In this document: positions 3,901-41,305 of the stretch, piece after piece
Layout of the letters: each line of letters opens with the position of its first letter
Position numbering within the stretch: position 1 is the stretch's first letter
From: Bacteroidales bacterium
GTDB taxonomy: Bacteria > Bacteroidota > Bacteroidia > Bacteroidales > UBA1715
Length of the DNA: 64,000 nucleotides
Direction of reading: 5' to 3'
NCBI GenBank assembly: GCA_045600045.1
Contig: JAZRXD010000021.1
Coordinates: 9,121-73,120, forward strand
Notes under the pieces: generated by a model
What the model saw: only the letters and a program-made list of their open reading frames with translations
Told to the model about the DNA's origin: nothing
Database searches by the model: none
Made by a program: the position numbers and the translations under genes

Positions 3901-6900
3901 GACAATAAGGTGTATTATATAGGAGCTTTGACTCATGGAAAAACTACATACAATATAACTTTAACATTGAATGATGGTTATGGTGAAGTAACTCGTGATA
4001 TGGTTGTAAATGTGTTCGATAACCAAGAACCTGTTATTTCTCCATCGGTTATTACTATTGCTAAAACAGGAGATGAAACTTTGGTTCCTTTCGTTATCGA
4101 AGATAAAGATGGAGATATTGTCTCAATTACAAATATATCGGGAACTGATGCATCGAATTTTAAAATAAAGACAAATAAGATTTTCTATATTGGAGACGAA
4201 AACTTGTCTCGTGATGATGCAAATAACAATATAACAGTTACGCTAAGTGATGGTCTTATTTCTGTAAGTTACGATGTTGTTGTTGTGTTAGGGAAAAATC
4301 AGGCTCCTATTTTAACAACAAAATATGTTGAAATCACCGGCGTTGCATCGGATGTGGAAGTCCCTTTGACATTTGAGGATAAGGAAAACGAAACAGTTTC
4401 TATAACTGCAATAAACGGAGATGATGTCGACAAATTCTCGCTAGTTGACGGTACAATTTTTTATATAGGCGGTGTGCTTGATGAGCCACAAGTATATACG
4501 TTATCTGTTGTATTTACCGACGGAATTGCTCTCGAAACAGACAATATCAATGTTTCGATTCTTGTAAACAAAGCTCCAAGTGTTTCGCCGACTGCAATAA
4601 CAATAAAACGTTCAGGTACAGAAACATTGGTCCCAATTTCATTCTCCGACCCTGAAGATGATGCGTTGACTATTTCGGTAAATGATGTCACTAATTTTAA
4701 AATAAAAGATGGAAGTCTATATTATATAGGTAGTAATAAAACCGAAGATACTCCTTTTAATATTTCATTAACACTGAATGATGGAATAAATACTACTGTA
4801 CAACCAGTTACGGTTACGGTTTTAGGAAACAATCTTCCTGAACTTTCGCCTTCCTCTGTTACAATAACAGTTAAAAGGACAACAAGCAGTACGTCTACAA
4901 ATAATAATGTGCCTGTAACAATTTCTGATCCAGATGGAGATGAAATAACAAGTGTTACAATTACGAGTGGTAATGATAAAAATTATTTTACGGTATCGGG
5001 AACTCAAATTATTTTTAAATCCAATAAAAATAATGCAAATACAACAACAACTAATGGAACAACATATAATTTGACTATAGCAATCGTTTCAAATGGGGAA
5101 ACAACAACATTGCCTTTGGCTGTAAAAGTTAATGTTGTAAGTTCTTTAACTACACCAACTCTTACTGTTACGGGTTCTACTCAAGAGTATGGAACAAAAA
5201 TAAGTGAATGCTATACATTTTCAGCAAAGACTAGTTCTTTTTCGTCAACAAATGTTCAAGGTACAGCCTCAATTGTAGGTTATTCAGATGATTATATTCC
5301 TTCTGTAGGAATGCATACATATACTGTATTGTTTACTCCAAATGATTTGACAACGTATGCAACAACAACTAAAACAGTTAACATTACAATCAATAAGAAA
5401 GCAATAACTGTAACATCTGCATCTGGTAGCAAAGAATATGACGGAACGGAGTTAAAAGCAGAAAGTGCATCAGTAACTACAGGTTCATTGGTTGGAGATG
5501 ATATATTGTATTATTCTGATTTTACAAGCATAACAAATGTAGGCTCTGCAGAAAACAATTTTACAATAACAGGGGACGATACGGACAATTACGAAATAAC
5601 CCAAGAAAAAGGTACTTTGTCTATCACAAAGAACACAACAGATGAAAAAATAGTAACTATTACTGGTAATAGTGGAACAAAAATATATAATGGTTCTTCC
5701 CAAAGTGTATCTGGTTTTACTCATGATGCATCTCCAGAATTTACTGTTGCATTAAAATCGGGGAAAAAAGCCGTTGCGACAGGCACGAACGCGGGGACTT
5801 ACAATATGGGTCTAAAAGCCGATATGTTCAATGTAAGTTCTACGAACTACTCAAATATAAAGATTACAGTTGTTGACGGAACGTTGACAATCGCACCAGA
5901 TGCCGTGACCGAGAAGGAAATCACCATCACGGGTAACAACGACGAGAAAACATACACAGGCAGTTCACAGTCAGTTACGGGCTTCACGCATGACGGCGAC
6001 GCAAACTTCACAGTATCGTTGAAGAGTGGCGAGAAAGCTGAAGCATCTGGAACGAACGCTGGCACATACCCAATGGGCTTGACTGCCGATATGTTTAATG
6101 TAAGCTCTACGAACTACTCAAATATAAAGATTACGGTTGTTGACGGAACGTTGACAATCACACCGGATGCCGTGACCGAGAAGGAAATCACCATCACAGG
6201 TAACAACGACGAGAAAACATACACAGGCAGTTCACAGTCAGTTACGGGCTTCACTCACGACGGCGATGCAAGCTTCACAGTGGCATTGAAGAGCGGAAAG
6301 TCGGCAGTTGCATCGGGAACAAATGCTGGTTCATACACAATGGGCTTGACAGCCGACATGTTCAATGTGTCATCGACGAACTACTCAAATATAAAGGTTA
6401 CGGTTGAGGACGGAACGTTGAAAATCGAACCGAAAAATATTTTAATAAAAGGAGGTTCTACGGTAGAGGATAAATACTACGATGGAACAACAGCAACAAC
6501 AACTACACTTGGATCAGTAGATGGAATAGTAGATGGTGATGATGTAACGATAACAGCAGTTGGTACATTGGTAGACGCAAATGCGGGTACTGACAAAACA
6601 GTAAACATTGTTTATACATTGTCTGGTGCAGATAAAGACAATTATGTGGAAATTCTCGGTGAAACAAAAAAAATAACAGTAAGCAAGGCTCCAATCACAG
6701 TAACAACACCGACAGTAAAAGATAAAGAATACGATGCGACGACAGCCGCAGAAATAGACGGAACCCTATCATTTACAGGTGTACAGAACAACGAAGGCAC
6801 AAGCGTAATAAACGTAACGGCCGTTGCCAAATTTGAGGACGTAAAAGTAGGTGACGACAAAGATGTAACAGTAACCTATACTCTTGAAGGAACAGGAAAA

Positions 6901-9900: not shown

Positions 9901-12900
9901 GGTGAATATGTTGCAGAGGCTATAGAATTAAGTAGCTCTAACTACAAATTACCTGCAAATGCAAAACAAACTTGGTCAATTGCTGAAGGTATCTTTACTG
10001 TTTCGTTGGATGACGATACATATACGTATGACGGTATTGCACACCATAATACAAAAACAGCAAGTTGTACGGCTATAGGAGGTACTACGGAATATCAATA
10101 TTCATTCGATAAAGAAACATGGGTTTCTGATTTGGCTGATCTTGAACAAACAAATGCAGGCACATATACAATCAATGTAAAAGCTTCGAATTCAAAATAT
10201 AAAACAGATGCAACTTGTACAGCAAGTTTGATTATCAATAAGGCAACAATTACGGTAGAAGAGGTTTTGGTGGCCGACAAATATTACGATGGAACAAAAA
10301 CAGCTGTTGTTTCTGATGTTACATTTTCAGGTAATGTTTCTGGGCAAGGTTCTGAAATAGTTACAGTTACGCCTTCTGCTTCATTTATTGATGCAAATGT
10401 TGGCACAGAAAAGACTGTAAATGTTGTATATACATTAGCTGGAACTGGTGCTTCGAACTATGTACTTGCAAGTGAATCGGGTTCAACAACAGCCGATATC
10501 AATGCTAAGAATGTTGTAATTACTGTAAATTCATCGTATAAAACTTACGGAGAATCAGATCCTACATTTACAGGTTCTGTTGATGGTTTGGTACAAGCCG
10601 GCGATCTTGGAACAATCAGTTATGTACGTACAAATAGTAGTGTAAGTGCTGCCGACAGTTACGAAAAAGTAATCAATGCTATTTTTGATGCAAATGCGAA
10701 CTATGATGTAAAGGTTGAAAAAGGTGATTTCACAATCAATCAAAAAGAAGTTGAGTTAGTTTGGAGTTCTACAATTGAGTTTGATTATGACGGTAGCAAA
10801 CATAGTGTTTCAGTTTCGGTTAAGGCGGAAAGTTTGGTTGGAACAGACGAATGTTCAGTGGAAGTTTATGATAATGAACAAACTGCAGTAGGTAATTATA
10901 CTGCAACTGCAATAGGCTTGAGTAATGAAAATTACAAATTACCATCTAGCGGAACACAATTATCTTGGGCAATTGTTTCTTCGGAAACTGCTCCGGTTAT
11001 TACTTGGAATATTGGTGAACTTGAAAGTTACAAATACGATGGTACAGAAAAAACTCCTGCTCCATCTTCTATCCAAGTAAATGATGTTGATTTGATAAAA
11101 GATGTTGATTATACAATTTCTTATGCCAATAATAAAAATGCAGGAACGGCAACTGTCACTATAAAAGCAAAAGGTGGTTATTCGTTCGACGATGTGACAA
11201 AAGAATTCGCAATTGCGAAACGTATAGTTACATTAACTTCCGATAACGGCGAAAAAACGTATGATGGAACAGCTTTAACAAATAGTACGGTGTTCGTTGG
11301 CGACGACAAATTTGTTGACGGCGAAGGTGCAACCTATTCTGTAACTGGAACTCAGACAAATGCTGGTTCAAGTCAAAATACATTTACTTATGAATTGAAA
11401 GAAGGAACATCGGCATTAAATTACGAAATCAGTTCGATTTATGGGGCTTTGAATGTACTTACCTACGACGAAAAATACACTATTACAGTTAATGGTAATA
11501 AGGCAACAGTTCCATTTACTGGCGAAGAACAAAGCATAAGTGGTTATACAATAAGTGATTACGATGCAACAATCACATTAAATGGACCAGAACAAACTTC
11601 TGTTAAGGCAACAGGTTCAGCTGTAGGTTCATACAATATGGGATTGAAAGTTGAAGATTTCACTGCAACTTCATCTAACTATACAAATATTGAAATCGTT
11701 GTAAAAGATGGTAAACTAACAATCAGCACAAAAGCTATTGTTGTAACTGCAACTATTGATGAGGATGAAATTATTTATGATGGTTCGGAACACAAACCAA
11801 CATATACTGTAGTTGATGGCAACGAACAAGTAATTTCTCCAGACGAATATATTGTTGAATATTCTGAAAATACGACTGATGCTGGTGAAGTGACAGTTAC
11901 AATCAGTCCAAAAGAAGGGTCATCTTTCGATTTCGAACCAATTGTTGAAACATTTACGATTGAGCAAAAAACAGTGACTTTGGAATGGAATTCTGATTCT
12001 CCATTTGAGTTTGATAATACAGAAAAATCGGTAAGTATTAAATCAGTTGCTGGTATTGTTTCTGGTGATGAATGTTCTATTGTTCTTTCAGGTGATAAGG
12101 GAACCGAAGTCAAAGAATACGAAGCTACGGCAAGTCTTAGCGGTAAAGATAAGGGCAATTATAAATTGGCAAGCGACAATAGCTCTTTGGCTTGGGAAAT
12201 AACAACTAAGGAACTTGAAAAAACGAATTTCACAATCAGTGGCGACGAAGTTGTTTACAATGGCGAATCACAAGATGTTTCGTTCACGTCCGATCCTGAG
12301 TTGATTGAGGGTACAGATTACGAAGTGTACTATAAAATTGATGGTGAATGGACAACAGAAGCTCCATCAAATGCTGGGGAATATGAAGTGAAAATTGAGA
12401 TTATCAATCCAAATTATTCTGATGAGGATATTGAAGGTTGGACATTGGTAATTCAACAAAAAGAAGTTTCTCTTGTTTGGAGCAAAACTACTTCATTTGA
12501 ATATGACGGAACTGCAAAATCTGTAACAGCAGAGCTTGAAGATGTATTGAGTGGCGATGATTGTAAAGTTGTGTTGAGTAACAATACCAATACCGCTGTT
12601 GGTGAATACATTGCCACTGCATCGCTTGATGGAGCAGATAAAAACAATTATATAATCAAAGGTTCTACAAGTTTGGCTTGGGAAATTCTTATATCAGGTG
12701 ATGAATATGTAATTACGGTAACAGGAAATTCTGCAACAAAAGTATATAATGGTTCAGAACAAAATGTAAGTGGTTATACAGTAAGTTCTTACGATGCTTC
12801 TATTACATTTAATGGTCCTGCACAAGATGATGCTGTTGCAAAAGGAACTACTACGGGTACATATTATATGGGATTGACAAAGAGTGATTTCTCAGCATCT

Positions 12901-32649: not shown

Positions 32650-34341
32650 ATGTATATGGCAGACAATACAAATTTAGAAGAAGAAAAAAAATCTCTTAAC
32701 TTCTTAGAAGAAATCATTGAGAATGATTTAGCAAGTGGCAAACATAAATCAATTTTAACACGTTTCCCACCAGAACCAAACGGTTACTTGCATATTGGTC
32801 ACGCAAAGTCTATTTGCTTGAACTTTGGCTTGGCAAAAAAATATGGAGGAAAAACAAACCTTCGTTTTGACGATACAAATCCAGTAAAAGAAGATACGGA
32901 ATATGTTGATTCTATTATGGAAGATGTTCGTTGGTTAGGATTTGAGTGGGCAAGTGTTCACTATGCTTCGGACTATTTCGATCAACTTTACGAATGGGCT
33001 GTTGTTTTGATAAAGAAAGGTTTGGCATACGTTGACGACCAATCTTTGGAAGAAATCAGAAAAAATCGTGGAACGGTTCAAACTCCTGGAACGCCAAGTC
33101 CGTGGAGAGATAGAAGCGTAGAAGAAAATTTGGATTTGTTCGAAAGAATGAAAGCGGGCGAATTCCCTGATGGCTCAAAAGTTCTTCGTGCAAAGATTGA
33201 CATGGCTCACCAAAATATGCAATTCCGCGATCCGATTATGTATCGTATTTTGCATGCTCATCACCATAGAACTGGCGACAAATGGAATATTTATCCTATG
33301 TATGACTTTGCTCATGGTGAAAGTGATTCAATAGAAAATATCACTCACTCAATTTGTACTTTGGAATTCGATATTCACCGTCCGTTGTACGATTGGTTTA
33401 TTCAACAATTAGGAATTTTCCCATCACACCAATACGAATTTGCTCGTTTGAACATCAACTACACAGTGATGAGCAAACGTAAGCTTTTGCAATTGGTAAA
33501 AGAAAATTACGTAAGTGGTTGGGACGATCCACGAATGCCGACAATTTGCGGATTCCGTCGTCGTGGTTACACGCCAGAAGCAATTAGAAATTTCTGTGAA
33601 AAAATTGGTGTTGCAAAACGTGACAATGTGATTGATTATTCTGTTTTGGAATTCTGTCTTCGCGAGCATTTGAACAAAGTTGCTCCACGTATGATGGCTG
33701 TTCTTCATCCTGTGAAAGTTGTGATTACAAACTATCCAGAAGGACAAGTTGAATATTTGACAGCCGTGAATAATCCAGAAGACGAAACTGCTGGAACGCG
33801 CGAAATTCCATTCTCTCGCGAGATTTACATTGAGCAAGATGACTTTATGGAAAATCCACCAAAGAAATATTTCCGTCTTGCTCCAGGACAAGAAGTTCGT
33901 TTGCGTTATGCATATTTCATTACTTGTCAAGAAGTTATAAAAGACGCTGCGGGTAATATAACAGAAATTCATTGTACATACGATCCTGCTTCGAAAGGTG
34001 GAAATTCTCCTGACGGACGTAAAGTGAAAGGTACAATTCACTGGGTTTCGGCAGAACACGCAATTGATGCAGAAGTTCGTTTATTCGACAGATTGTTTGC
34101 CGTTGAAGCTCCAGAAGAATGCGAAGAAGGCAAGACATTCCTTGACAATTTGAATCCAAATTCATTACAAGTTCTTCAAAACTGTAAATTGGAACCATAT
34201 TTGGCAAACAGCAAAGTGCTTGACAAAATGCAGTTCGAACGCCTTGGCTATTTCTGCGTAGATAAAGATTCTACTCCAGAACATTTGGTATTCAACCGTG
34301 CTTGCACGTTGAAAGATAGCTGGGCAAAGATTAACGGATAA
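32650..34341 (+). CDS. glnS: glutamine--tRNA ligase
   Basis: [16 protein letters not shown] (HIGH) and VMSKRKL (KMSKS). An alternative ATG lies at 32656. Confidence 0.92.
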
Positions 34342-34360
34342 GGATTTAGCTTACATAAAT

Positions 34361-34400
34361 AAAACCCGATGTTGTTTTTCAGCATCGGGTTTTATTTTTT
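34361..34400 (+). terminator. rho-independent terminator after glnS
   Basis: aaaacccgatg / catcgggtttt 11-bp stem followed by a T-rich tail. Confidence 0.8.
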
Positions 34401-34600
34401 GCTTAGTTTCGTTGTTTTTATCTATTCAAGTAAAAACCATCAGAAAAAATTATCTTGAATGAAGAATATATATAATCATTTATTTTGCATTATGCAATTT
34501 GCATAATGTGATTTACATAATAAAAGATTTGGACGTTCTTTGCAGATATGAGACAAAGTAGAATGTATTTCTTTACAATAACACTTTTACAATCATTAAT

Positions 34601-35866
34601 TTATTTGTTATTTACCACCCAAGTTGTGCAATTAAGGAGGCCGCCTTCCTGAGCTACATCGTTGTAATTTATAGTTTCAATAACTTTGTCAGGGAAGGCA
34701 TTTTTAATAATATCAATAGCCAGCTTGTCTTCATCTCTTCCGAATACAGGAATAACTATTAAATTATTGACTTCCAAATAATTCACATATATTCCAATTG
34801 CACTTTCAGGATGTTTGTTGTCGTTGTGTTTAAAGAATGGTACATCAATGTATTTCAAACTATATTGTGTAATTACCTTTTGCATGCCCTCACGCCAATA
34901 CTTGTATTCAGTTGCTAAATTGTTTCCAAGAATGGTATTCCTGTCCACGAATCTCACCATTCCATCTGCATGTCCTGTGTAATCGTTATTTTGTGCAGGA
35001 ATTATAATTATCTCACACTCCAACAATTTCGATAATTCACTAATAAGAACTTCCTTTTCATAATCAGGATTTTCAGAAAAAATTCTATCTGATAATATCG
35101 CCCGTCCATCACAAATAAGGACATTTCCTCCATCAATATTTATATCCGAAAAATAAGCTTCAATATTATTAAGTTTGCAAACTTCCCGCACATCGGAACG
35201 CGAATCTTCCCATTCTTTTTTGCCTTTCAAGTAGCTTGGGTTGTATGTAAACTGAATGAACTTGCCCGATTCAGTTTGAATTGGCATATAGTCACGACAC
35301 CAAATATCCTTCGTACCTTTCAACAGACGATATTCCACATCGTGTTTTCTAAGTATGGAAGTCAACCGATTGAAGCAATCTGGGAAACGCTCTTGAAGTA
35401 GTTCCGACAAATATATAACACTTTTGACCTTTGTCAGTGCTGAAATAGATTCAACTTTCTCAACGACATCGGCAGTTAGCTCTTCTCTTTTCTGTTGTGA
35501 ATTTTTCATTTCCCAATATTTCTTTCTGATTGACGGATAATTACCTTTCATAAACATTTCACACAGATCCTTGGAGGGTTCCCAGTCATTTTGCAGACAT
35601 AAATCCAAAAAGACTGCCTCCTTACCTCTGTCGTTTAGTACAAAGTTTTGAATGTACCCATTTTTGATTCTTCTTCCTAACGGCAATAATCGCTTGTCTA
35701 TTTCCCGAAGAATTTTTTGGTGTTCTTTTTTCGTCAGATTTTTATCAACGAGTTCGTTCATCAACTCTGTCAGTGGTTGTTTTTTCAACCATTTATAAAT
35801 TGATCTACCTGCTCCTACAATAGCGATAACACCACTGATAATTCCGATTATAGATTCTATATTCAT
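34601..35866 (-). CDS. membrane-tethered agmatine deiminase / PAD-fold (guanidino-group modifying enzyme) family protein
   Basis: N-terminal TM helix IIGIISGVIAIVGAG followed by basic residues. The C-terminal ~260 aa carry IWCRDYMP, IDGGNVL, TGHADGMVRF and EGGLLNCTTW, which parallel the W-x-R-D, GH-x-D and GG-x-x-(H/N)-C motifs of agmatine deiminases. Confidence 0.7.
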   Translation of the reverse strand: MNIESIIGIISGVIAIVGAGRSIYKWLKKQPLTELMNELVDKNLTKKEHQKILREIDKRLLPLGRRIKNGYIQNFVLNDRGKEAVFLDLCLQNDWEPSKDLCEMFMKGNYPSIRKKYWEMKNSQQKREELTADVVEKVESISALTKVKSVIYLSELLQERFPDCFNRLTSILRKHDVEYRLLKGTKDIWCRDYMPIQTESGKFIQFTYNPSYLKGKKEWEDSRSDVREVCKLNNIEAYFSDINIDGGNVLICDGRAILSDRIFSENPDYEKEVLISELSKLLECEIIIIPAQNNDYTGHADGMVRFVDRNTILGNNLATEYKYWREGMQKVITQYSLKYIDVPFFKHNDNKHPESAIGIYVNYLEVNNLIVIPVFGRDEDKLAIDIIKNAFPDKVIETINYNDVAQEGGLLNCTTWVVNNK

Positions 35867-35888
35867 AAGTTACAATATTTAAATATGA

Positions 35889-36263
35889 TTATTCCTTTTT
35901 GAAAGTTCCTGAAATCCAGCCTTCTCCTTCCAGAGTATGACTATCTATAATTTCCATTGATAAAGTTCCCAATTCTCCACCAACAGCTATATAAACATAA
36001 TTCCCGTCAATTTTATATTCCCCACTCATTGGAAAACAACCAAAATAGGCAAAACGACAATTCCTTTCACCAAAATAGATTGTGTCAACCAATCCCTTTT
36101 GAAAAACATTCCAAACAGTGCCACGATCATTTTCTCTTACCTTTGTATAACACCCTGTAATGCTTGGTTTTGTTGTGCAGGAAAATAGTAAAATCCCGAT
36201 TGTACCTATTATTACGTTTCTCAACGTAATAATAAACTCATTTCTAATCTCGTTTGCTTTCAT
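35889..36263 (-). CDS. small lipoprotein (124 aa), unknown function
   Basis: Lipobox-like GILLFSC. Lies 22 nt upstream of the PAD-fold gene on the same strand. Confidence 0.6.
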   Translation of the reverse strand: MKANEIRNEFIITLRNVIIGTIGILLFSCTTKPSITGCYTKVRENDRGTVWNVFQKGLVDTIYFGERNCRFAYFGCFPMSGEYKIDGNYVYIAVGGELGTLSMEIIDSHTLEGEGWISGTFKKE

Positions 36264-36647
36264 TAATCCATACCCTTAATCCGTGTCGAGCACAACTTTT
36301 AATATACCGTAACCTACCGACAAAAAAAAGCGTGAAACTTAACCGTCTCCCGCTCTATGAGGTGTTTGGCGTAACCTGAATACACGAAATAAGTAAAGTC
36401 CACGCCATAGCATGAACATAATCACTTATTCCTTTCGTATTCTATTATAGTCGCCAAACTTTCACAGAGAAAGAAATAAAGCTTAATGCTTTTAATATGT
36501 CAAAACCGCATTTTGCAATTTCGCTACAAATGTGTAAAATTTTTTTAAGGAAAACAAATGGTAAATTTTATTGGTATTTGCAACTTTGTGAATGCTTATT
36601 GTTTTTTAATTTTTCAATAACTTATTGAATTACAATCTATTATTTAA

Positions 36648-36818
36648 CTAACAAGTTTGTTAGTAACAAACTTGTTACTAATCAGAAAAGTAACTCGTTT
36701 AATACGAGCATTGGAATCAAAAGAAATTGTAGAAGTAACAGGTAAAAAAGTTGAATTGTCTGATCCCGTTTTTGGTCGTTGGGTTCAGAAGAATTTGAAT
36801 TCATTCTTTAAAGAATAA
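36648..36818 (+). pseudogene. 3' remnant of a gene (winged-helix C-terminus of the type found in DUF234/AAA ATPases); no start codon
   Basis: The in-frame translation ...IRKVTRLIRALESKEIVEVTGKKVELSDPVFGRWVQKNLNSFFKE* reads like a protein C-terminus. Upstream there is only AT-rich sequence dense with stops and no ATG. Confidence 0.4.
36649..36677. promoter_or_regulatory. 29-bp perfect palindrome = two adjacent TAACA-N4-TGTTA operator-like sites
   Basis: TAACAAGTTTGTTA-g-TAACAAACTTGTTA: 14-bp arms that are exact reverse complements. The second site extends to GTAACAaactTGTTAC (36663-36678). Confidence 0.6.
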
Positions 36819-36820
36819 AA

Positions 36821-37030
36821 CTACATTAAATCCTTCACATCAACACCCAGCGCTTTACTAATTGTAAAAAGAGTTTTAATTGTAATATTCACCCGACCAG
36901 ATTCAATTCTGCTCATACTTGAGCGCTCCATGTCGCATAGATATGCAAGGTCTTGTACCGACAGATTCTTTTCTATTCGGAAAGCCTTTATTTTAGAGGC
37001 AATTACCTGAATCTCATCTTGATACTCCAT
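36821..37030 (-). CDS. XRE-family helix-turn-helix transcriptional regulator (69 aa)
   Basis: IKAFRIEKNLSVQDLAYLCDMERSSMSRIESGRVNITIKTLFTISKALGV is a classic Cro/C1 HTH. The ATG at 37030 is preferred to the TTG at 37057. Confidence 0.85.
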   Translation of the reverse strand: MEYQDEIQVIASKIKAFRIEKNLSVQDLAYLCDMERSSMSRIESGRVNITIKTLFTISKALGVDVKDLM

Positions 37031-37035
37031 GTTTT

Positions 37036-37055
37036 GCGTAACATATTTGCTACGC
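37036..37055. promoter_or_regulatory. operator O1: GCGTAACAtattTGCTACGC (one mismatch to the palindrome)
   Basis: Lies 6 nt upstream of the XRE ATG and shares the GTAACA-N4-TGTTAC core. Confidence 0.55.
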
Positions 37056-37068
37056 AAAGAAATCTTTT

Positions 37069-37076
37069 TATATTTG
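37069..37076 (+). promoter_or_regulatory. -7 promoter box (TATATTTG) facing the DUF4236 operon
   Basis: Exact TAnnTTTG match on the plus strand, divergent from the XRE gene. Operator O2 begins 8 nt downstream, over the predicted +1. Confidence 0.45.
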
Positions 37077-37083
37077 CATAATG

Positions 37084-37101
37084 CGTAACATATATGTTAC
37101 G
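37084..37101. promoter_or_regulatory. operator O2: CGTAACATATATGTTACG, an 18-bp perfect palindrome
   Basis: Read directly from the sequence. The core is GTAACA-tata-TGTTAC. Confidence 0.6.
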
Positions 37102-37304
37102 GAGAAAATTTGGAAACAAAAATTTTTTTGTTGTGTTCCAGATTTTTGCACAGTAACAATTTTGATTTGCACAGAACGGAGATGCCGATAGCCGATGTAA
37201 GTGGAGGCAAAAATTAAAATTTTATATTCTATGTACACTTTAAATTTCCCAAATGGTAATGTTCAAACAAATAGTACTTACCTTTTGTATACTGAATAGC
37301 GGAT

Positions 37305-37502
37305 ATGGGAAACTTTAGGTTTTGGAAACGAATAAAATTATGTTCTGGAATCTTCCTAAACATAGGGAAAAAGAGCGGTTCCGTTTCTGTTGGACCTAAG
37401 GGGCTCAAATATACAATAGGTTTAGTCGGAAGACGATTCACTATCAGCATTCCTGGTACAGGATTGTATTATACAATATTTAAATCATGGCATAAAAAGT
37501 AA
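37305..37502 (+). CDS. DUF4236-like small protein (65 aa)
   Basis: MGNFRFWKRIKLCSGIFLNIGKKSGSVSVGPKGLKYTIGLVGRRFTISIPGTGLYYT matches my memory of the DUF4236 pattern (FRFRKRIKIxPGVRLNxSKxGxSxSxGxxGxxxxxGxxGxxxxxxIPGTGL). Confidence 0.6.
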   Translation: MGNFRFWKRIKLCSGIFLNIGKKSGSVSVGPKGLKYTIGLVGRRFTISIPGTGLYYTIFKSWHKK

Positions 37503-37532
37503 AAGTACATGTGTAATTGATAATCTTAAGTT

Positions 37533-38807
37533 ATGGGAAAGAGAAATAATGATTCAGATGCAAGTTCTATTTTATTAGGAATTATTGTTCTAGTTGTTTA
37601 TTTTGCAATAGTTTTAATTCCAATATTTCTTATTATTGGTTGGATTGTAAATTTCACCTCTTATAGAAGAAATTATAAAAACAAGTTTGAGAACGGTTTT
37701 TGGTTAGACAAGAATCAAAAAAAACTATTTAAATTATTAACCGAACGTGTTGACTATTGTTACGAGCAAATACGTTTAGCAAACCAAACTGCAGATGCAG
37801 AAGGAATAGCTAGAAATAAGGACGGACAAATCTCATCAAAAAGTTACAGAGGCAAAAACTTACGCTCAATTATCGGGAAAAGCCAATGGCAAATCAACGA
37901 AGACGAACCAGAAATAGACGACTTATCCGAACAGCCACGTTCTAATTACAAAAAATATCGTAAGACATACAGTTTGATGCTTGGATGTGGTTATGCTGTG
38001 GTTTTTTATGCGGGATACTTTTTGTATTATTATGTAAACAACAATCTAGAGTCTATTTTTGCAGAAAAAGGAATTCTTGAAGGATTTATTGCTATTTCAT
38101 CCAAGATTTCTATTCAATCACTGGCAGTTTTTGTAATAATATATATAATAGGAATCATAAAATTTAGAATAAATTTCGGGGGAAAGCCACCCTTTGTTTC
38201 TATAGAAAATGTTGACACATATAAAGACCCTAACTATGTAGAAAAAGAGTCTTGGGAAATGCCTAAACCCTCTACGTCTGCGACAAATGTAAAACCACAG
38301 CGAGAATTCACAAATCCTATAGAAATACAGTTGTATTTCTGGGACGAATTACGACGACAATTGAAACAAATGGGATACCCAATAGATACCTCAGAAAATT
38401 TATCACAAAAAATAGAACAATATTACGCCAATAATGAAAATAGAGATTGGTATAAATGGTATGGATTTAGCTTTGAAATAGGGAAAAATCCAGAAGGCAA
38501 TTCTATAAAATTCTGCGTTCAAATTGACGACGTATACTTTTTTAGTTTTCCTAGATTTCAAAAAAAATATCAAGATGAAAAAATATCTCAATCTTTACAT
38601 AATATAGGATTTACCGAATGGGAAGACGAGAATCTTTTTGCTGGACGACATCCTTATCAAGAAATATCAATAGACTTTTGGAGCTTTAGAGGATTTGAAA
38701 AAATAAATTCGGATTCACAAGAAAGCAGAGAATTCATTAGCAAAATTGCAAGTCAAGTTGATTCTTATATAAAAGCTTTCAAAAAAGAATACAACCAATT
38801 ACAATAA
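37533..38807 (+). CDS. hypothetical multi-pass membrane protein (424 aa) with a C-terminal soluble domain
   Basis: TM segments ILLGIIVLVVYFAIVLIPIFLIIGWIV, LMLGCGYAVVFYAGYFLYYYV and LAVFVIIYIIGII. No family recognised. Confidence 0.65.
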   Translation: MGKRNNDSDASSILLGIIVLVVYFAIVLIPIFLIIGWIVNFTSYRRNYKNKFENGFWLDKNQKKLFKLLTERVDYCYEQIRLANQTADAEGIARNKDGQISSKSYRGKNLRSIIGKSQWQINEDEPEIDDLSEQPRSNYKKYRKTYSLMLGCGYAVVFYAGYFLYYYVNNNLESIFAEKGILEGFIAISSKISIQSLAVFVIIYIIGIIKFRINFGGKPPFVSIENVDTYKDPNYVEKESWEMPKPSTSATNVKPQREFTNPIEIQLYFWDELRRQLKQMGYPIDTSENLSQKIEQYYANNENRDWYKWYGFSFEIGKNPEGNSIKFCVQIDDVYFFSFPRFQKKYQDEKISQSLHNIGFTEWEDENLFAGRHPYQEISIDFWSFRGFEKINSDSQESREFISKIASQVDSYIKAFKKEYNQLQ

Positions 38808-38875
38808 ATTCAAAAGACACATTGCATTTTTGCTAAAGAACAAGATTATGACACAAATTGTGAAATATTACATTT

Positions 38876-39601
38876 ATGAAGACAATATTTGAAATCAATA
38901 AACAATTAGATGAGCTTTTTAAATATTGGAAATTTAAAAGCAAATATTTAGGAGATACCGAAGCTTTTGTTTCTGATGGCATTATGCGTAATACAGAAAA
39001 TGACTTCCCTTGGCATGAAAAACCCATTAGAATAGCTTTTTTAGTAAAAGATAATCCCGATGGAGAACAGGATACGCGTGACTGGCTGCAATTTAAAAAG
39101 AACCAAAATTTAAGTTTTACTTTTATTCACAAAATTGCAAATCTCTTTTATGGATTGAGTAAAGCTACGGACGCAAACGATGCATCATGGTGGTTTGGAG
39201 AAATAGAACAACATCAAGAAGATGTAAAGGATTTCTTTAACACAGAACCATTTGCTTTTATAGAATGCAAGAAACAACCTGGCAAGCAAAATATTGATGA
39301 CAAAGTATTACAAAAATATTTAATCACATATCAAAATCTGTTGTATGAAGAATTAGAAATAATTGAACCAAACATATTGGTTTGTATGGGGCAACCAATA
39401 TTTGATTTTGTAAAAAAAATATATGATGATGCGATATTAGGTGCAGATAAAAATATCTATTATGTTCCTTCTAATAAAAAAATCATAATTTATGCGGGAC
39501 ATCCAAGCGGTAGAGACAGTTATGAGAATAACTATGAGGGTGTTATGCATTGGTATAGACAATTCCTGAAATCAGATATGTATAAAGATTTTAACAAATA
39601 A
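38876..39601 (+). CDS. hypothetical protein (241 aa) with weak uracil-DNA-glycosylase-superfamily-like motif order
   Basis: IAFLVKDNPDGEQD ... ILVCMGQPIFDFV ... IIIYAGHPSGRDS resembles UDG-fold motif A / core strand / HPS motif B. This is pattern recognition only. Confidence 0.55.
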   Translation: MKTIFEINKQLDELFKYWKFKSKYLGDTEAFVSDGIMRNTENDFPWHEKPIRIAFLVKDNPDGEQDTRDWLQFKKNQNLSFTFIHKIANLFYGLSKATDANDASWWFGEIEQHQEDVKDFFNTEPFAFIECKKQPGKQNIDDKVLQKYLITYQNLLYEELEIIEPNILVCMGQPIFDFVKKIYDDAILGADKNIYYVPSNKKIIIYAGHPSGRDSYENNYEGVMHWYRQFLKSDMYKDFNK

Positions 39602-39734
39602 ACTTCCTGAAAGTGAACAAGTAGCGGCGAATCGAAAGGTTCGCTTTTTTGTTTATCTTTGTGTTTGCCGTAGCACAAGTATCATGTTTTTATTTAAAAC
39701 ATTTTGTTGCAACTAAAATTTAGTTACATTTGTC

Positions 39735-40016
39735 ATGGGAACAAAAGAGAAATTGATAAGACGATTTATGTCCAATCCGAAAGACTTTACTTTCGACGAA
39801 TTAAAACGATTGTTTGAAATATTTGGATATTCATTAGAAAACAAAGGAGGAACATCTGGTTCGCGAGTAATGTTTACTAAAGGAGAAAGTACATTTATTA
39901 TGCACAAACCACATCCCTCAAATATTATCAAACAATACATAATGAAAAACGCAATCAACTTTGTGAGAGACAATAACTTAGAAGAACAATTTAAATCTGA
40001 AAAGGAGGACGAATAA
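39735..40016 (+). CDS. hicA: type II toxin HicA (YcfA-like mRNA interferase)
   Basis: KEKLIRRFMSNPKDFTFDELKRLFEIFGYSLENKGGTSGSRVMFTKGESTFIMHKPHP. Confidence 0.8.
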   Translation: MGTKEKLIRRFMSNPKDFTFDELKRLFEIFGYSLENKGGTSGSRVMFTKGESTFIMHKPHPSNIIKQYIMKNAINFVRDNNLEEQFKSEKEDE

Positions 40017-40357
40017 TGGGAACACTTACATATAAAGATTATCTTGGGACTGTTGAATACGACAGTCAAGAAGATTGTCTTGTCGGAAAAGTATTAGGAT
40101 TGCCAAACAAAGTTGCAATAACATACGAAGGGCAGAGTCTTTCCGAAATACGAAAAGATTTTGAGGGTGCGGTTGACGATTATTTAGATTATTGCAACAA
40201 AAAAGGAATAACTCCACAAAAATCGTATAGCGGCAGTTTCAACATTAGAATTTCTTCTGACTTGCATTACAAAATAGCAATGATTGCTCAACAAAAAGGA
40301 GAGACCATCAACGCATTTGTAAAACAATGCTTAGAAAATGCCGTTAAAGTGATTTAA
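40016..40357 (+). CDS. hicB: type II antitoxin HicB
   Basis: YKDYLGTVEYDSQEDCLVGKVLGL...YEGQSLSEIRKDFEGAVDDYLDYCNKKGITPQKSYSGSFNIRISSDLH. The start overlaps the hicA stop (TAATG). Confidence 0.85.
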   Translation: MGTLTYKDYLGTVEYDSQEDCLVGKVLGLPNKVAITYEGQSLSEIRKDFEGAVDDYLDYCNKKGITPQKSYSGSFNIRISSDLHYKIAMIAQQKGETINAFVKQCLENAVKVI

Positions 40358-40454
40358 TCCATCGGATATTTCACGCCCCACTCTTTGCGCAACGCATCCA
40401 TTTGCTGCATAACCAAATGGTTTTGGCATGAGCCATTTGTGTACAAAAAGAAAA

Positions 40455-40488
40455 TAAAAAAGTCACACGTGTTTGCGTGTGACTTTTA
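40455..40488. terminator. bidirectional terminator
   Basis: aaaaaa-agtcacacg-tgtttg-cgtgtgact-ttt, between convergent hicB and the 264-aa membrane protein gene. Confidence 0.7.
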
Positions 40489-40510
40489 ACATATTAAGGA
40501 TTTTGAAGAA

Positions 40511-41305
40511 TTATTCTTTTACTTCTTCCACAGTTTCTTCAACTGCTTCTGTCGTTTCTTGAACTTCTTCTTCAATAGCTTGAGTTTCTTCAGCTTGTTC
40601 TGATTCTACAGCTTGGCTTTCTTCTTTTAATTTTTGGTCTTTCTTATAGCAGCCTTTACAAAGTTCCATTTTTCCTGCTTCTTCTGCTTGTCCAATTGAA
40701 CCAACGATTAAAGAATCTTGTGTTGAGCGGTCTAGATATTGACAATCTGCGTGAGTGTGGTATTTAGAACCTGTTGAAACCCAATAAACGTCAATGTCGG
40801 CGTTGCCATATTGTTCTTGTAATTGTTCCTGGCTTACAGGGTTGAAGTCGTAGCTTGACACACCAGCAATAGCAAATGCTACAGCAGCAACAGCTGTTGC
40901 TATTTTCTTTGTTTTTGGATCTAAATCCTTTTTAGTTAAAATGTAGATGATAACAGGAATGAATGCCAAACAAGCTACAATTACGCCCATATTGTTCCAA
41001 ATCCAGAATTTTAATTTGTTTTGTTCCGAAGCTGGATCAATGTGATTAGCTTTCTTCCACATCAATGAACCTGCAATTACAAATGCCATATCAACAACCA
41101 AAGGGATGATGATTGTCGTTAATTGACTGCCGAACCATACAAATTTGCCGGCAATAGCCATGCAACACACAACTTCCATTGCGATTGCAAGTACCCAACA
41201 TACAACTGCACCAATGCGCAATCCTGAAGCGTTACCTTCAACTTTCACTTGTCCTGAAGGAGCTTTACGTTCTCCTGCAGCCTTCACAATTTTTTTTTCT
41301 GCCAT
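40511..41305 (-). CDS. hypothetical 4-TM membrane protein with a C-terminal Cys/His motif and acidic tail
   Basis: TM-rich core, then VYWVSTGSKYHTHADCQYL...MELCKGCYKK and a glutamate-rich tail EESQAVESEQAEETQAIEEEVQETTEAVEETVEEVKE. Confidence 0.65.
   Translation of the reverse strand: MAEKKIVKAAGERKAPSGQVKVEGNASGLRIGAVVCWVLAIAMEVVCCMAIAGKFVWFGSQLTTIIIPLVVDMAFVIAGSLMWKKANHIDPASEQNKLKFWIWNNMGVIVACLAFIPVIIYILTKKDLDPKTKKIATAVAAVAFAIAGVSSYDFNPVSQEQLQEQYGNADIDVYWVSTGSKYHTHADCQYLDRSTQDSLIVGSIGQAEEAGKMELCKGCYKKDQKLKEESQAVESEQAEETQAIEEEVQETTEAVEETVEEVKE

Follow-up and report, generated by a model that had tools for sequence, protein, structure and literature searches.

Four similar palindromes around a Bacteroidales XRE gene probably belong to two separate cis-regulatory elements

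A small XRE-family regulator gene in this Bacteroidales contig is bracketed by four palindromes, two on either side, that look alike at first reading. The initial annotation took all four for operators of the one XRE repressor, and drew from them a single regulon spanning 34.6–39.6 kb of the window (the whole 64,000-nucleotide stretch analysed here). Do the four sites in fact form one set? We consider it probable (about 80%) that they are two independent cis-regulatory elements, 360 bp apart, which share a TAACA-N4-TGTTA core: a pair of operators for the XRE protein (sites iii and iv) and the relic of an array that belongs with a now-deleted ATPase gene (sites i and ii).

Two classes of palindrome

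All four palindromes are present in the window as originally quoted:

36648–36663, site i, CTAACAAGTTTGTTAG, read in the window
36663–36678, site ii, GTAACAAACTTGTTAC, read in the window
37036–37055, site iii, the proximal operator, GCGTAACATATTTGCTACGC, with one mismatch in the right half-site
37084–37101, site iv, the distal operator, CGTAACATATATGTTACG, identified by conservation in relatives and by the first rank in the matrix scan below

Sites i and ii together form a perfect 14+1+14 palindrome of 29 bp (36649–36677), as had been noted. Perfect palindromes of this size are expected 2.4e-4 times in the window under uniform composition, close to the ~2e-4 first estimated, and 5e-4 times at the window's 38% GC. 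With up to one mismatch allowed, GTAACA-N4-TGTTAC occurs three times, always within 36663–37100, against an expectation of 0.19; none of 100 shuffles reached three (0/100), placing the clustering beyond chance. The exhaustive pattern search returned no further site in the window with one mismatch or fewer, in agreement with the earlier by-eye impression that the motif is absent elsewhere in it. At up to two mismatches the count alone is not unusual (six in the window, 3.5 expected), and four of the six matches fall inside ~450 bp.

The sequence common to all four sites is limited to TAACA...TGTTA, and flanks and centres split them into two classes. Sites iii and iv follow the consensus TGCGTAACATATATGTTACGCA, with CG flanks and a (T/A)ATA centre; sites i and ii follow CTAACAAnnTTGTTAG, a unit of the form S-TAACAA-NN-TTGTTA-S arranged in 15-bp tandem. 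The XRE operators are set off from the array by CG at the ±8 and ±9 flanks and by position −2, which is T in the operators and A in the array. The centre is A/T-only in every XRE operator, and the centres of sites i and ii contain G/C.

Cross-scoring with two position matrices sets the element classes cleanly apart. The XRE-operator matrix, built from 13 distinct operators of ten related loci (L001–L010) with the window left out, scores its training sites at 25.7–34.8 bits, and ranks site iv first (34.2 bits) and site iii second (33.9 bits) in the window. Site ii reaches 8.8 bits, the third-best score in the window (the next background match has 7.2), and site i falls to −2.1 bits. The ATPase-array matrix gives 33.4 bits to site ii, 30.8 bits to site i and values below 0 to sites iii and iv; its fixed positions are circular, because its training sites were picked with the search pattern. 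Some residual uncertainty attaches to site ii, where the TAACA core, shared at identical spacing, and the third-best matrix rank leave some probability of weak cross-binding by the XRE protein. A possible fifth site (37150–37176, 67%) was dropped, as it lies outside the top XRE-matrix matches.

The XRE gene, its operators and the promoters between them

The regulator gene and the promoter elements that surround sites iii and iv are:

36821–37030, minus strand, XRE-family (HTH_3) repressor gene, 69 aa, assigned from Pfam, PADLOC and solved relatives
37069–37076, plus strand, −7 box of the divergent promoter, TATATTTG, Bacteroidota-type, read from the sequence
37046–37049, plus strand, −33 TTTG of the divergent promoter, inside site iii and 19 nt before TATATTTG
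37055–37062, minus strand, candidate weak −7-like box of the XRE promoter, TTTCTTTG, directly upstream of site iii, with the consensus TA missing

The XRE protein matches Pfam HTH_3 (PF01381) over residues 14–67 at 42.7 bits (cut-off 23, E 5.6e-11) and PADLOC Control_protein over 5–68 of 77 positions (3.8e-13). Its closest solved relatives are C.Esp1396I (PDB 3clc, E 6e-7), C.AhdI (7e-5) and C.BclI. The 38 homologs are 69 aa long in nearly all cases, and scanning their alignment against one genome per species yielded 23 loci, the ten closest of which (L001–L010) share about 74–93% protein identity.

Measured from the XRE ATG, GTAACA-type palindromes recur at −72 and −25 in L002–L004 and L006–L009. 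L010 keeps a clear proximal operator at −25 and a degenerate distal one (GTAGCGTATATGCTGC); protein identity across L002–L004 and L006–L010 is 74–91%. The XRE module is incomplete in L001 and L005, where the two operators are fused and have lost the promoter core that separates them elsewhere. The operators stand out in the alignment as near-invariant islands, with the flanks of L006–L010 unalignable to the window. Even the imperfect GTAGCA half-site of site iii is kept in L002–L004 and L007–L010, L006 having a perfect one instead (GTAACAAAAATGTTAC).

More distant orthologs add a second type of operator. In L011–L019 and L021 (from Alistipes, Rikenellaceae and Paludibacteraceae, 52–64% identical to the XRE protein), the position of the distal operator is taken by CGTATCATATATGATACG. 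The change from GTAACA to GTATCA replaces A by T in both half-sites, preserving the dyad, and the HTH differs in step with operator type (LAYLCDMERSSMSRIESGRVNIT versus LAYRCDMERSNMSRIEAGRTNLT). Of the computational evidence, nothing speaks more strongly for an XRE dimer that would read sites iii and iv than this symmetric operator change with its match in the protein. The pair is conserved with the regulator gene and co-varies with its DNA-reading residues, and behaves as an operator pair in both respects.

Bacteroidota promoters follow the consensus TTTG (−33)/TAnnTTTG (−7), and elements of this kind lie back to back here. Seven nucleotides separate the TATATTTG box (37069–37076) from 37084, where site iv begins, consistent with the start 8 nt downstream of the box that had been described. 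Every orthologous locus, those of Alistipes type included, keeps the reverse complement of this box, GCAAATATA, with 7 nt between it and the distal operator, and the TTTG immediately before the proximal operator is likewise kept across XRE loci. Because site iv begins 7 nt after the −7 box, it would cover the predicted divergent transcription start. On the other side, 5 nt separate site iii from the XRE ATG (37030), correcting the 6 nt first given; the predicted XRE transcription start falls inside site iii, and TTTCTTTG is a candidate for the −7-like box of that promoter.

Measured between their centres, the two operators are 47 bp apart, and the promoter core occupies the intervening space. 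The divergent promoter would have its −33 element within site iii and its −7 box in the gap between the operators, with transcription predicted to begin at the margin of site iv; the XRE promoter appears as its mirror image. With one dimer per palindrome, the XRE gene (by autorepression) and the divergent cassette would therefore both be shut off. The proposal that sites iii and iv provide autoregulation together with repression of the divergent DUF4236 promoter is in this way supported, by the invariant island, the kept 7-nt spacing and the symmetric co-variation with the HTH.

The divergent transcript would carry the following genes:

37231–37299, plus strand, first gene of the divergent transcript, truncated to 22 codons; homology to L001 ends at 37268
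37305–37502, plus strand, DUF4236 gene, divergent cargo
37533–38807, plus strand, 424-aa membrane protein gene, the C-terminal part of which matches the defence candidate PDC-S26
38876–39601, plus strand, gene for a 241-aa, weakly UDG-like protein, divergent cargo

The first of these genes has a full 45-aa form, MY(T/Q)LNFPNGNVQTY..., in L001 and L006. A 3.1-kb block (37269–40352) with the DUF4236, membrane and UDG-like cargo and HicAB is missing in L001, where 160 bp stand in its place; the glnS-adjacent locus is therefore a cassette hot spot. The divergent cargo of L002–L004 is a 102-aa protein and a GmrSD-type nuclease (HEC-06), and other XRE loci carry lipoproteins. In L005 the XRE gene abuts glnS, and ATPase and array are both absent. 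Neither the 45-aa ORF nor most divergent cargo proteins received an informative name from Pfam, NCBIfam or PADLOC. The constant part of the cassette locus is the XRE gene with its operators, which may form a conserved, C-protein-like control socket beside glnS into which defence-type cargos are swapped.

How close is this module to known ones? It resembles the controller (C) proteins of restriction–modification systems in its small XRE-family HTH protein, for which C.Esp1396I, C.AhdI and C.BclI are the best sequence matches, in two palindromic operators with an A/T-rich (TATA) centre before its own gene, in its predicted autoregulation and, in L002–L004 only, in a cargo that includes a GmrSD-type restriction nuclease. 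Its context places it outside that family, as neither a place in a restriction–modification operon, ahead of the endonuclease gene and in the same orientation, nor the C-box layout is found. The window XRE gene has no adjacent restriction enzyme or methyltransferase gene; its neighbours are the ATPase relic and, divergently, the DUF4236/membrane/UDG-like block, and the genes it would regulate are divergent rather than co-transcribed. The C-box consists of adjacent OL and OR over ~35 bp, whereas the window operators are 47 bp apart around a bidirectional promoter, and the GTAACA half-site is unlike the GACT/AGTC of C proteins. With Cro/CI-type repressors (lambda, 434, P22) the module shares an HTH_3 dimer and palindromic operators lying over back-to-back promoters, for its own gene and the opposite transcript; it differs in having no phage context or partner repressor and a variable chromosomal cassette near glnS as cargo.

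Sites i and ii and the ATPase family

On the far side of the XRE gene lie two features that belong together:

36648–36678, no strand, relic array of sites i and ii, with two CTAACAAnnTTGTTAG units at a 15-bp period
36694–36818, plus strand, 3′ relic of an ATPase gene, approximately its last 42–49 codons with half of the winged helix, identified by tblastn and blastn

L001, L002 and L004 show what once stood here. In each, a full 377-aa ATPase gene, convergent to the XRE gene, lies between it and the array, and three tandem units (for example GTAACAAAGTTGTTACTAACAAACTTGTTACTAACAACTTTGTTAG) stand ~40 nt upstream of the ATPase ATG, just before a TATTTTTG box. The window aligns by tblastn (36669–36815) with residues 329–377 of the L002 ATPase at 82% identity. 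By blastn against L001, 36682–36693 of the window stands for 1,060 bp, with clear DNA homology from 36694 onwards. Lost with the 1,060-bp deletion are the −7 box, the ATG and ~330 codons, making the window copy a relic; two array units are left, compared with three in L001, L002 and L004. The tandem units themselves persist (at least two, at the 15-bp period), no longer at their position before a promoter box and ATG. A 53-codon ORF at 36657–36818 was rejected as a gene, since tblastn identifies it as the ATPase 3′ relic, and no intact ATPase of this subfamily was found within the window. As a promoterless relic, the array would have no expected role in the lipoprotein/PAD operon.

The link between array and ATPase extends well beyond these loci. 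The ATPase has more than 8,000 homologs, and all four that were fetched by protein (73%, 67%, 56% and 55% identity) have a perfect or degenerate array upstream (4/4), in unrelated neighbourhoods with no XRE gene nearby. At least 120 loci came up when metagenome contigs were searched for the DNA pattern TAACAANNTTGTTANTAACAANNTTGTTA and nothing else. Among the matches listed, 84 of 121 arrays have an ATPase-family N-terminus a median of 50 nt off, pointing away from the array. Beside the other 37 of the 121 no ATPase is detectable; these include contig ends, solo arrays (L057, L113 and L136, compared with L047) and one relic like that of the window (L134). None of the array loci listed has an adjacent XRE gene, the single XRE-like match (L063) being 8.5 kb off and 40% identical.

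The position of the array is as constant as its partner. Across 36 distinct ATPase-linked arrays, mostly of 2–3 units, TAnnTTTG follows in 34, and in 26 of those 34 it starts 16–17 nt past the last unit; with this spacing to the −7 box, the TTGTTA of the final unit serves as the −33 element or overlaps it. The ATPases linked to arrays are 39–73% identical to ATPase1 (blastp) and have a C-terminal motif in common, LGSSANVxRxxxALxxKEII...DPvFxxW. The ATPase2 subfamily, that of a paralog in L001 with 23% identity, has another palindrome, cATTATnnGATTTnnATAATg (ATTAT-N7-ATAAT), which in five unrelated loci stands where the array does relative to the −7 box. With a distinct motif for each subfamily at one set place in the promoter, it seems likely that each ATPase regulates its own gene through its winged helix. 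For P0039, which has 99% identity to the L002 protein, the AlphaFold model (mean pLDDT 78) shows an AAA+ core followed by a winged helix, composed of helices 302–312, 322–327 and 333–345 and a hairpin at 349–358, with pLDDT above 90 for most of it. Its best structural matches are the archaeal ATPase_2 proteins PABY2304 and SSO1545, then Orc1/Cdc6 and ORC subunits. On these grounds, the most likely binder of the array would be the winged helix of the ATPase itself.

Two known arrangements are similar in part. Archaeal Orc1/Cdc6 with its ORB repeats, PABY2304 and SSO1545 share the AAA+ domain with C-terminal winged helix (matches to 2qen, 2fna and Orc1/Cdc6) and repeated inverted-repeat sites beside the gene of the presumed binder. 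The array host, however, is bacterial (Bacteroidota), the units are 15-bp tandem palindromes, and the array sits at the −33 of the ATPase gene's own promoter with no sign of origin function. The iterons of plasmid Rep proteins are likewise evenly spaced tandem repeats before the gene of the presumed binder, overlapping its promoter in a way that would autorepress. Iterons are direct asymmetric repeats, whereas the array units are palindromes, and the ATPase-array locus is chromosomal, scattered and single-gene, without replication genes. Full-text literature searches with the operator and array sequences returned chance matches only (mitochondrial and SARS-CoV-2 papers), and searches on DUF234, COG1672 and PF01637 gave nothing that bears on an upstream motif. 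Both motifs were absent from the viral contigs searched, and a phage origin of either was dropped for this reason.

Alternative readings and what the locus means

Of the other explanations, the one that survives best has the relic array still at work in trans: an intact ATPase of the same subfamily, encoded elsewhere in the genome, would bind 36648–36678 and affect lipoprotein/PAD or XRE read-through. Both units are indeed perfect and score like functional arrays, and the solo arrays of L057, L113 and L136 show that arrays without an ATPase persist in other genomes. The perfect units may simply mean that the deletion is recent, however, and the window holds neither an intact ATPase of the subfamily nor the −7 box. 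The likely lipoprotein/PAD promoter region (36264–36601), 95% conserved with L001, works there without an adjacent array. We regard action in trans as improbable.

Still less credible is the original proposal, in which one XRE repressor acts through all four palindromes on its own gene, the DUF4236 operon and the lipoprotein/PAD operon. What made it attractive is the GTAACA/TGTTAC-like half-sites at N4 spacing in all four sites within 453 bp, to which can be added the third-best matrix rank of site ii and the finding that XRE gene and array are neighbours in L001, L002 and L004 also. Comparison across loci separates them, though. An adjacent XRE gene is missing from at least 120 array loci, and L005–L010 have the XRE gene with iii/iv-type operators but without array or ATPase. 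Sites i and ii lack the CG flanks and the A/T-only centre, and their −2.1 and 8.8 bits compare with at least 25.7 for XRE operators; by these scores and by the absence of the array from XRE loci L005–L010 they are not members of that set. Nor does the array follow the lipoprotein/PAD operon, which the initial annotation had placed under the XRE repressor through sites i and ii: it tracks the ATPase gene, stands 385 nt from the lipoprotein start, is separated from lipoprotein/PAD in L001 by the second, paralogous ATPase gene, and is present in L002 and L004, where lipoprotein/PAD is absent. With two element classes that have separate associations, the single 34.6–39.6 kb regulon is not supported.

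Less probable again is a purely structural role for sites i and ii, as a terminator hairpin of the XRE transcript, a cruciform or a recombination hot spot. The 14+1+14 palindrome can fold back, and arrays do lie near indel breakpoints: the window deletion begins 4 nt past the array, L047 and L057 part from each other exactly at the edge of the array, and the units vary in number from 2 to ~9. The stem is A/T-rich, however, with no T-run on either strand, and the terminator scan passed over the palindrome to call a hairpin at 36709–36693, on which grounds an intrinsic terminator at sites i and ii was rejected. Rfam covariance models gave no match in 34000–41000 at E up to 0.1, and a structured-RNA reading was dropped because of this. 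Recognition by a protein is favoured by the motifs specific to each subfamily, together with the fixed place that 34 of 36 arrays keep with respect to the −7 box. Least probable of all is that a factor other than the adjacent XRE protein would bind sites iii and iv, as these are found wherever the XRE gene is, at a set distance from it, and change in step with its HTH. The cargo, being variable, could not supply a constant binder.

For the window, the preferred reading of two independent elements replaces a tempting but wrong 5-kb regulon with an XRE repressor and its operator pair, beside a decayed ATPase gene. Conservation, gene associations, the deletion and the predicted fold are what the comparison shows; the binder of each site, the transcription starts and the direction of control are inferred. 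Motif likeness inside one window can mislead, and comparison of orthologous loci resolves such cases cheaply. The XRE part adds one more ordinary case to a familiar kind of system; the ATPase arrays emerged as a side result. A bolder extension can be put forward speculatively, with the odds against it: the 15-bp palindromes might serve as loading sites for an Orc1/Cdc6-like ATPase assembly, in what would be a very widespread and undescribed cassette of Bacteroidota, consisting of one self-regulating gene, with operator codes that differ by subfamily and possibly with a mobile or defence-related nature. On that reading a dead copy of this cassette would survive in the window. As a separate matter, the XRE module may act as a cargo-swapping socket beside glnS. 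More generally, the uncharacterised AAA+/winged-helix "ATP-binding protein" genes, which number thousands in the gut Bacteroidota, seem to have arrays of a type specific to their subfamily at the −33 of their own promoters, and the ATPase-linked arrays offer a testable handle on this large family.

Operators and cargo on the divergent side of XRE

The two operators that flank the back-to-back predicted promoters of the XRE repressor gene and its divergent cassette (window 37036–37055 and 37084–37101) are fused in two of the 11 closest XRE loci, the window counted: L001 (4960–5000) and L005 (4955–5000). L001 lacks 47 bp, apparently through recombination between the repeated operators, and in L005 32 bp are missing. 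Each deletion takes out the −7 box of the predicted XRE promoter as well as that of the predicted divergent promoter, so in these two strains the XRE control module may be inactive or degenerating.

The first divergent gene past the operators in L001 and L006 is a conserved 45-aa small ORF, MY(T/Q)LNFPNGNVQTY...AFVPKK, for which we found no family match. The window copy is shortened to 22 codons by the 3.1-kb DUF4236–HicB block.

Positions of the 45-aa small ORF
L001 4708–4845
L006 4627–4764
window 37231–37299, shortened

Within the cargo, a 424-aa membrane protein (window 37533–38807) matches the PADLOC defence candidate PDC-S26 over its C-terminal 160 residues (1.2e-12). The gene that follows (38876–39601) is weakly UDG-like (Pfam 0.0016, under threshold), and L005 carries a 40% identical homologue at the same relative position.

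Palindromes with and without their ATPase genes

Tandem palindrome arrays, which elsewhere precede AAA+/winged-helix ATPase genes, also occur solo, with no ATPase gene, in three metagenome loci.

Solo arrays
L057 4432–4475
L113 2888–2931
L136 5188–5231

All three share one flank, which includes a 73-aa ORF, with the ATPase-bearing allele L047 (array 10850–10893), and their divergence from L047 begins exactly at the array edge. L134 (217–245) pairs an array with a C-terminal ATPase relic, the same state as the window. In L061 the array reaches about nine tandem units (approximately 1390–1520).

A terminator-like hairpin (36693–36709, minus strand; GCTCGTATTAAACGAGT, then TACTTTTCTG) sits inside the window's own relic, right at the junction left by the deletion. 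It comes about 110 nt past the XRE stop codon and may now act as the XRE terminator.

The second, paralogous ATPase subfamily has a conserved palindrome particular to it, cATTATnnGATTTnnATAATg, directly before its −7 box.

Second-subfamily palindrome, upstream of the ATPase gene
L001 6556–6582
L155, L157, L159, L161 and L162

Its arms are lengthened to 22 bp in L161 and L162. The palindrome persists in L002 as a relic (about 6585–6615), its ATPase gene having been lost.

PAD_porph-family protein and possible cassette turnover between XRE and glnS

The PAD_porph-family protein (421 aa, window 34601–35866) carries a hydrophobic N-terminal segment, and its deiminase fold is preceded by about 120 additional residues. 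Agmatine deiminase models match its last 65 residues only, far under their cut-offs.

In L001, the second ATPase gene has on either side a repeat of the sequence found just 3′ of glnS.

Sequence just downstream of glnS
window 34313–34534
L001 6533–6597 and 7693–7850, copies either side of the second ATPase gene

The window lacks this gene, and approximately 44 bp there (36558–36601) match both edges of the absence. Comparison of these sequences suggests that recombination between short repeats both adds and removes cassettes in the stretch between XRE and glnS.
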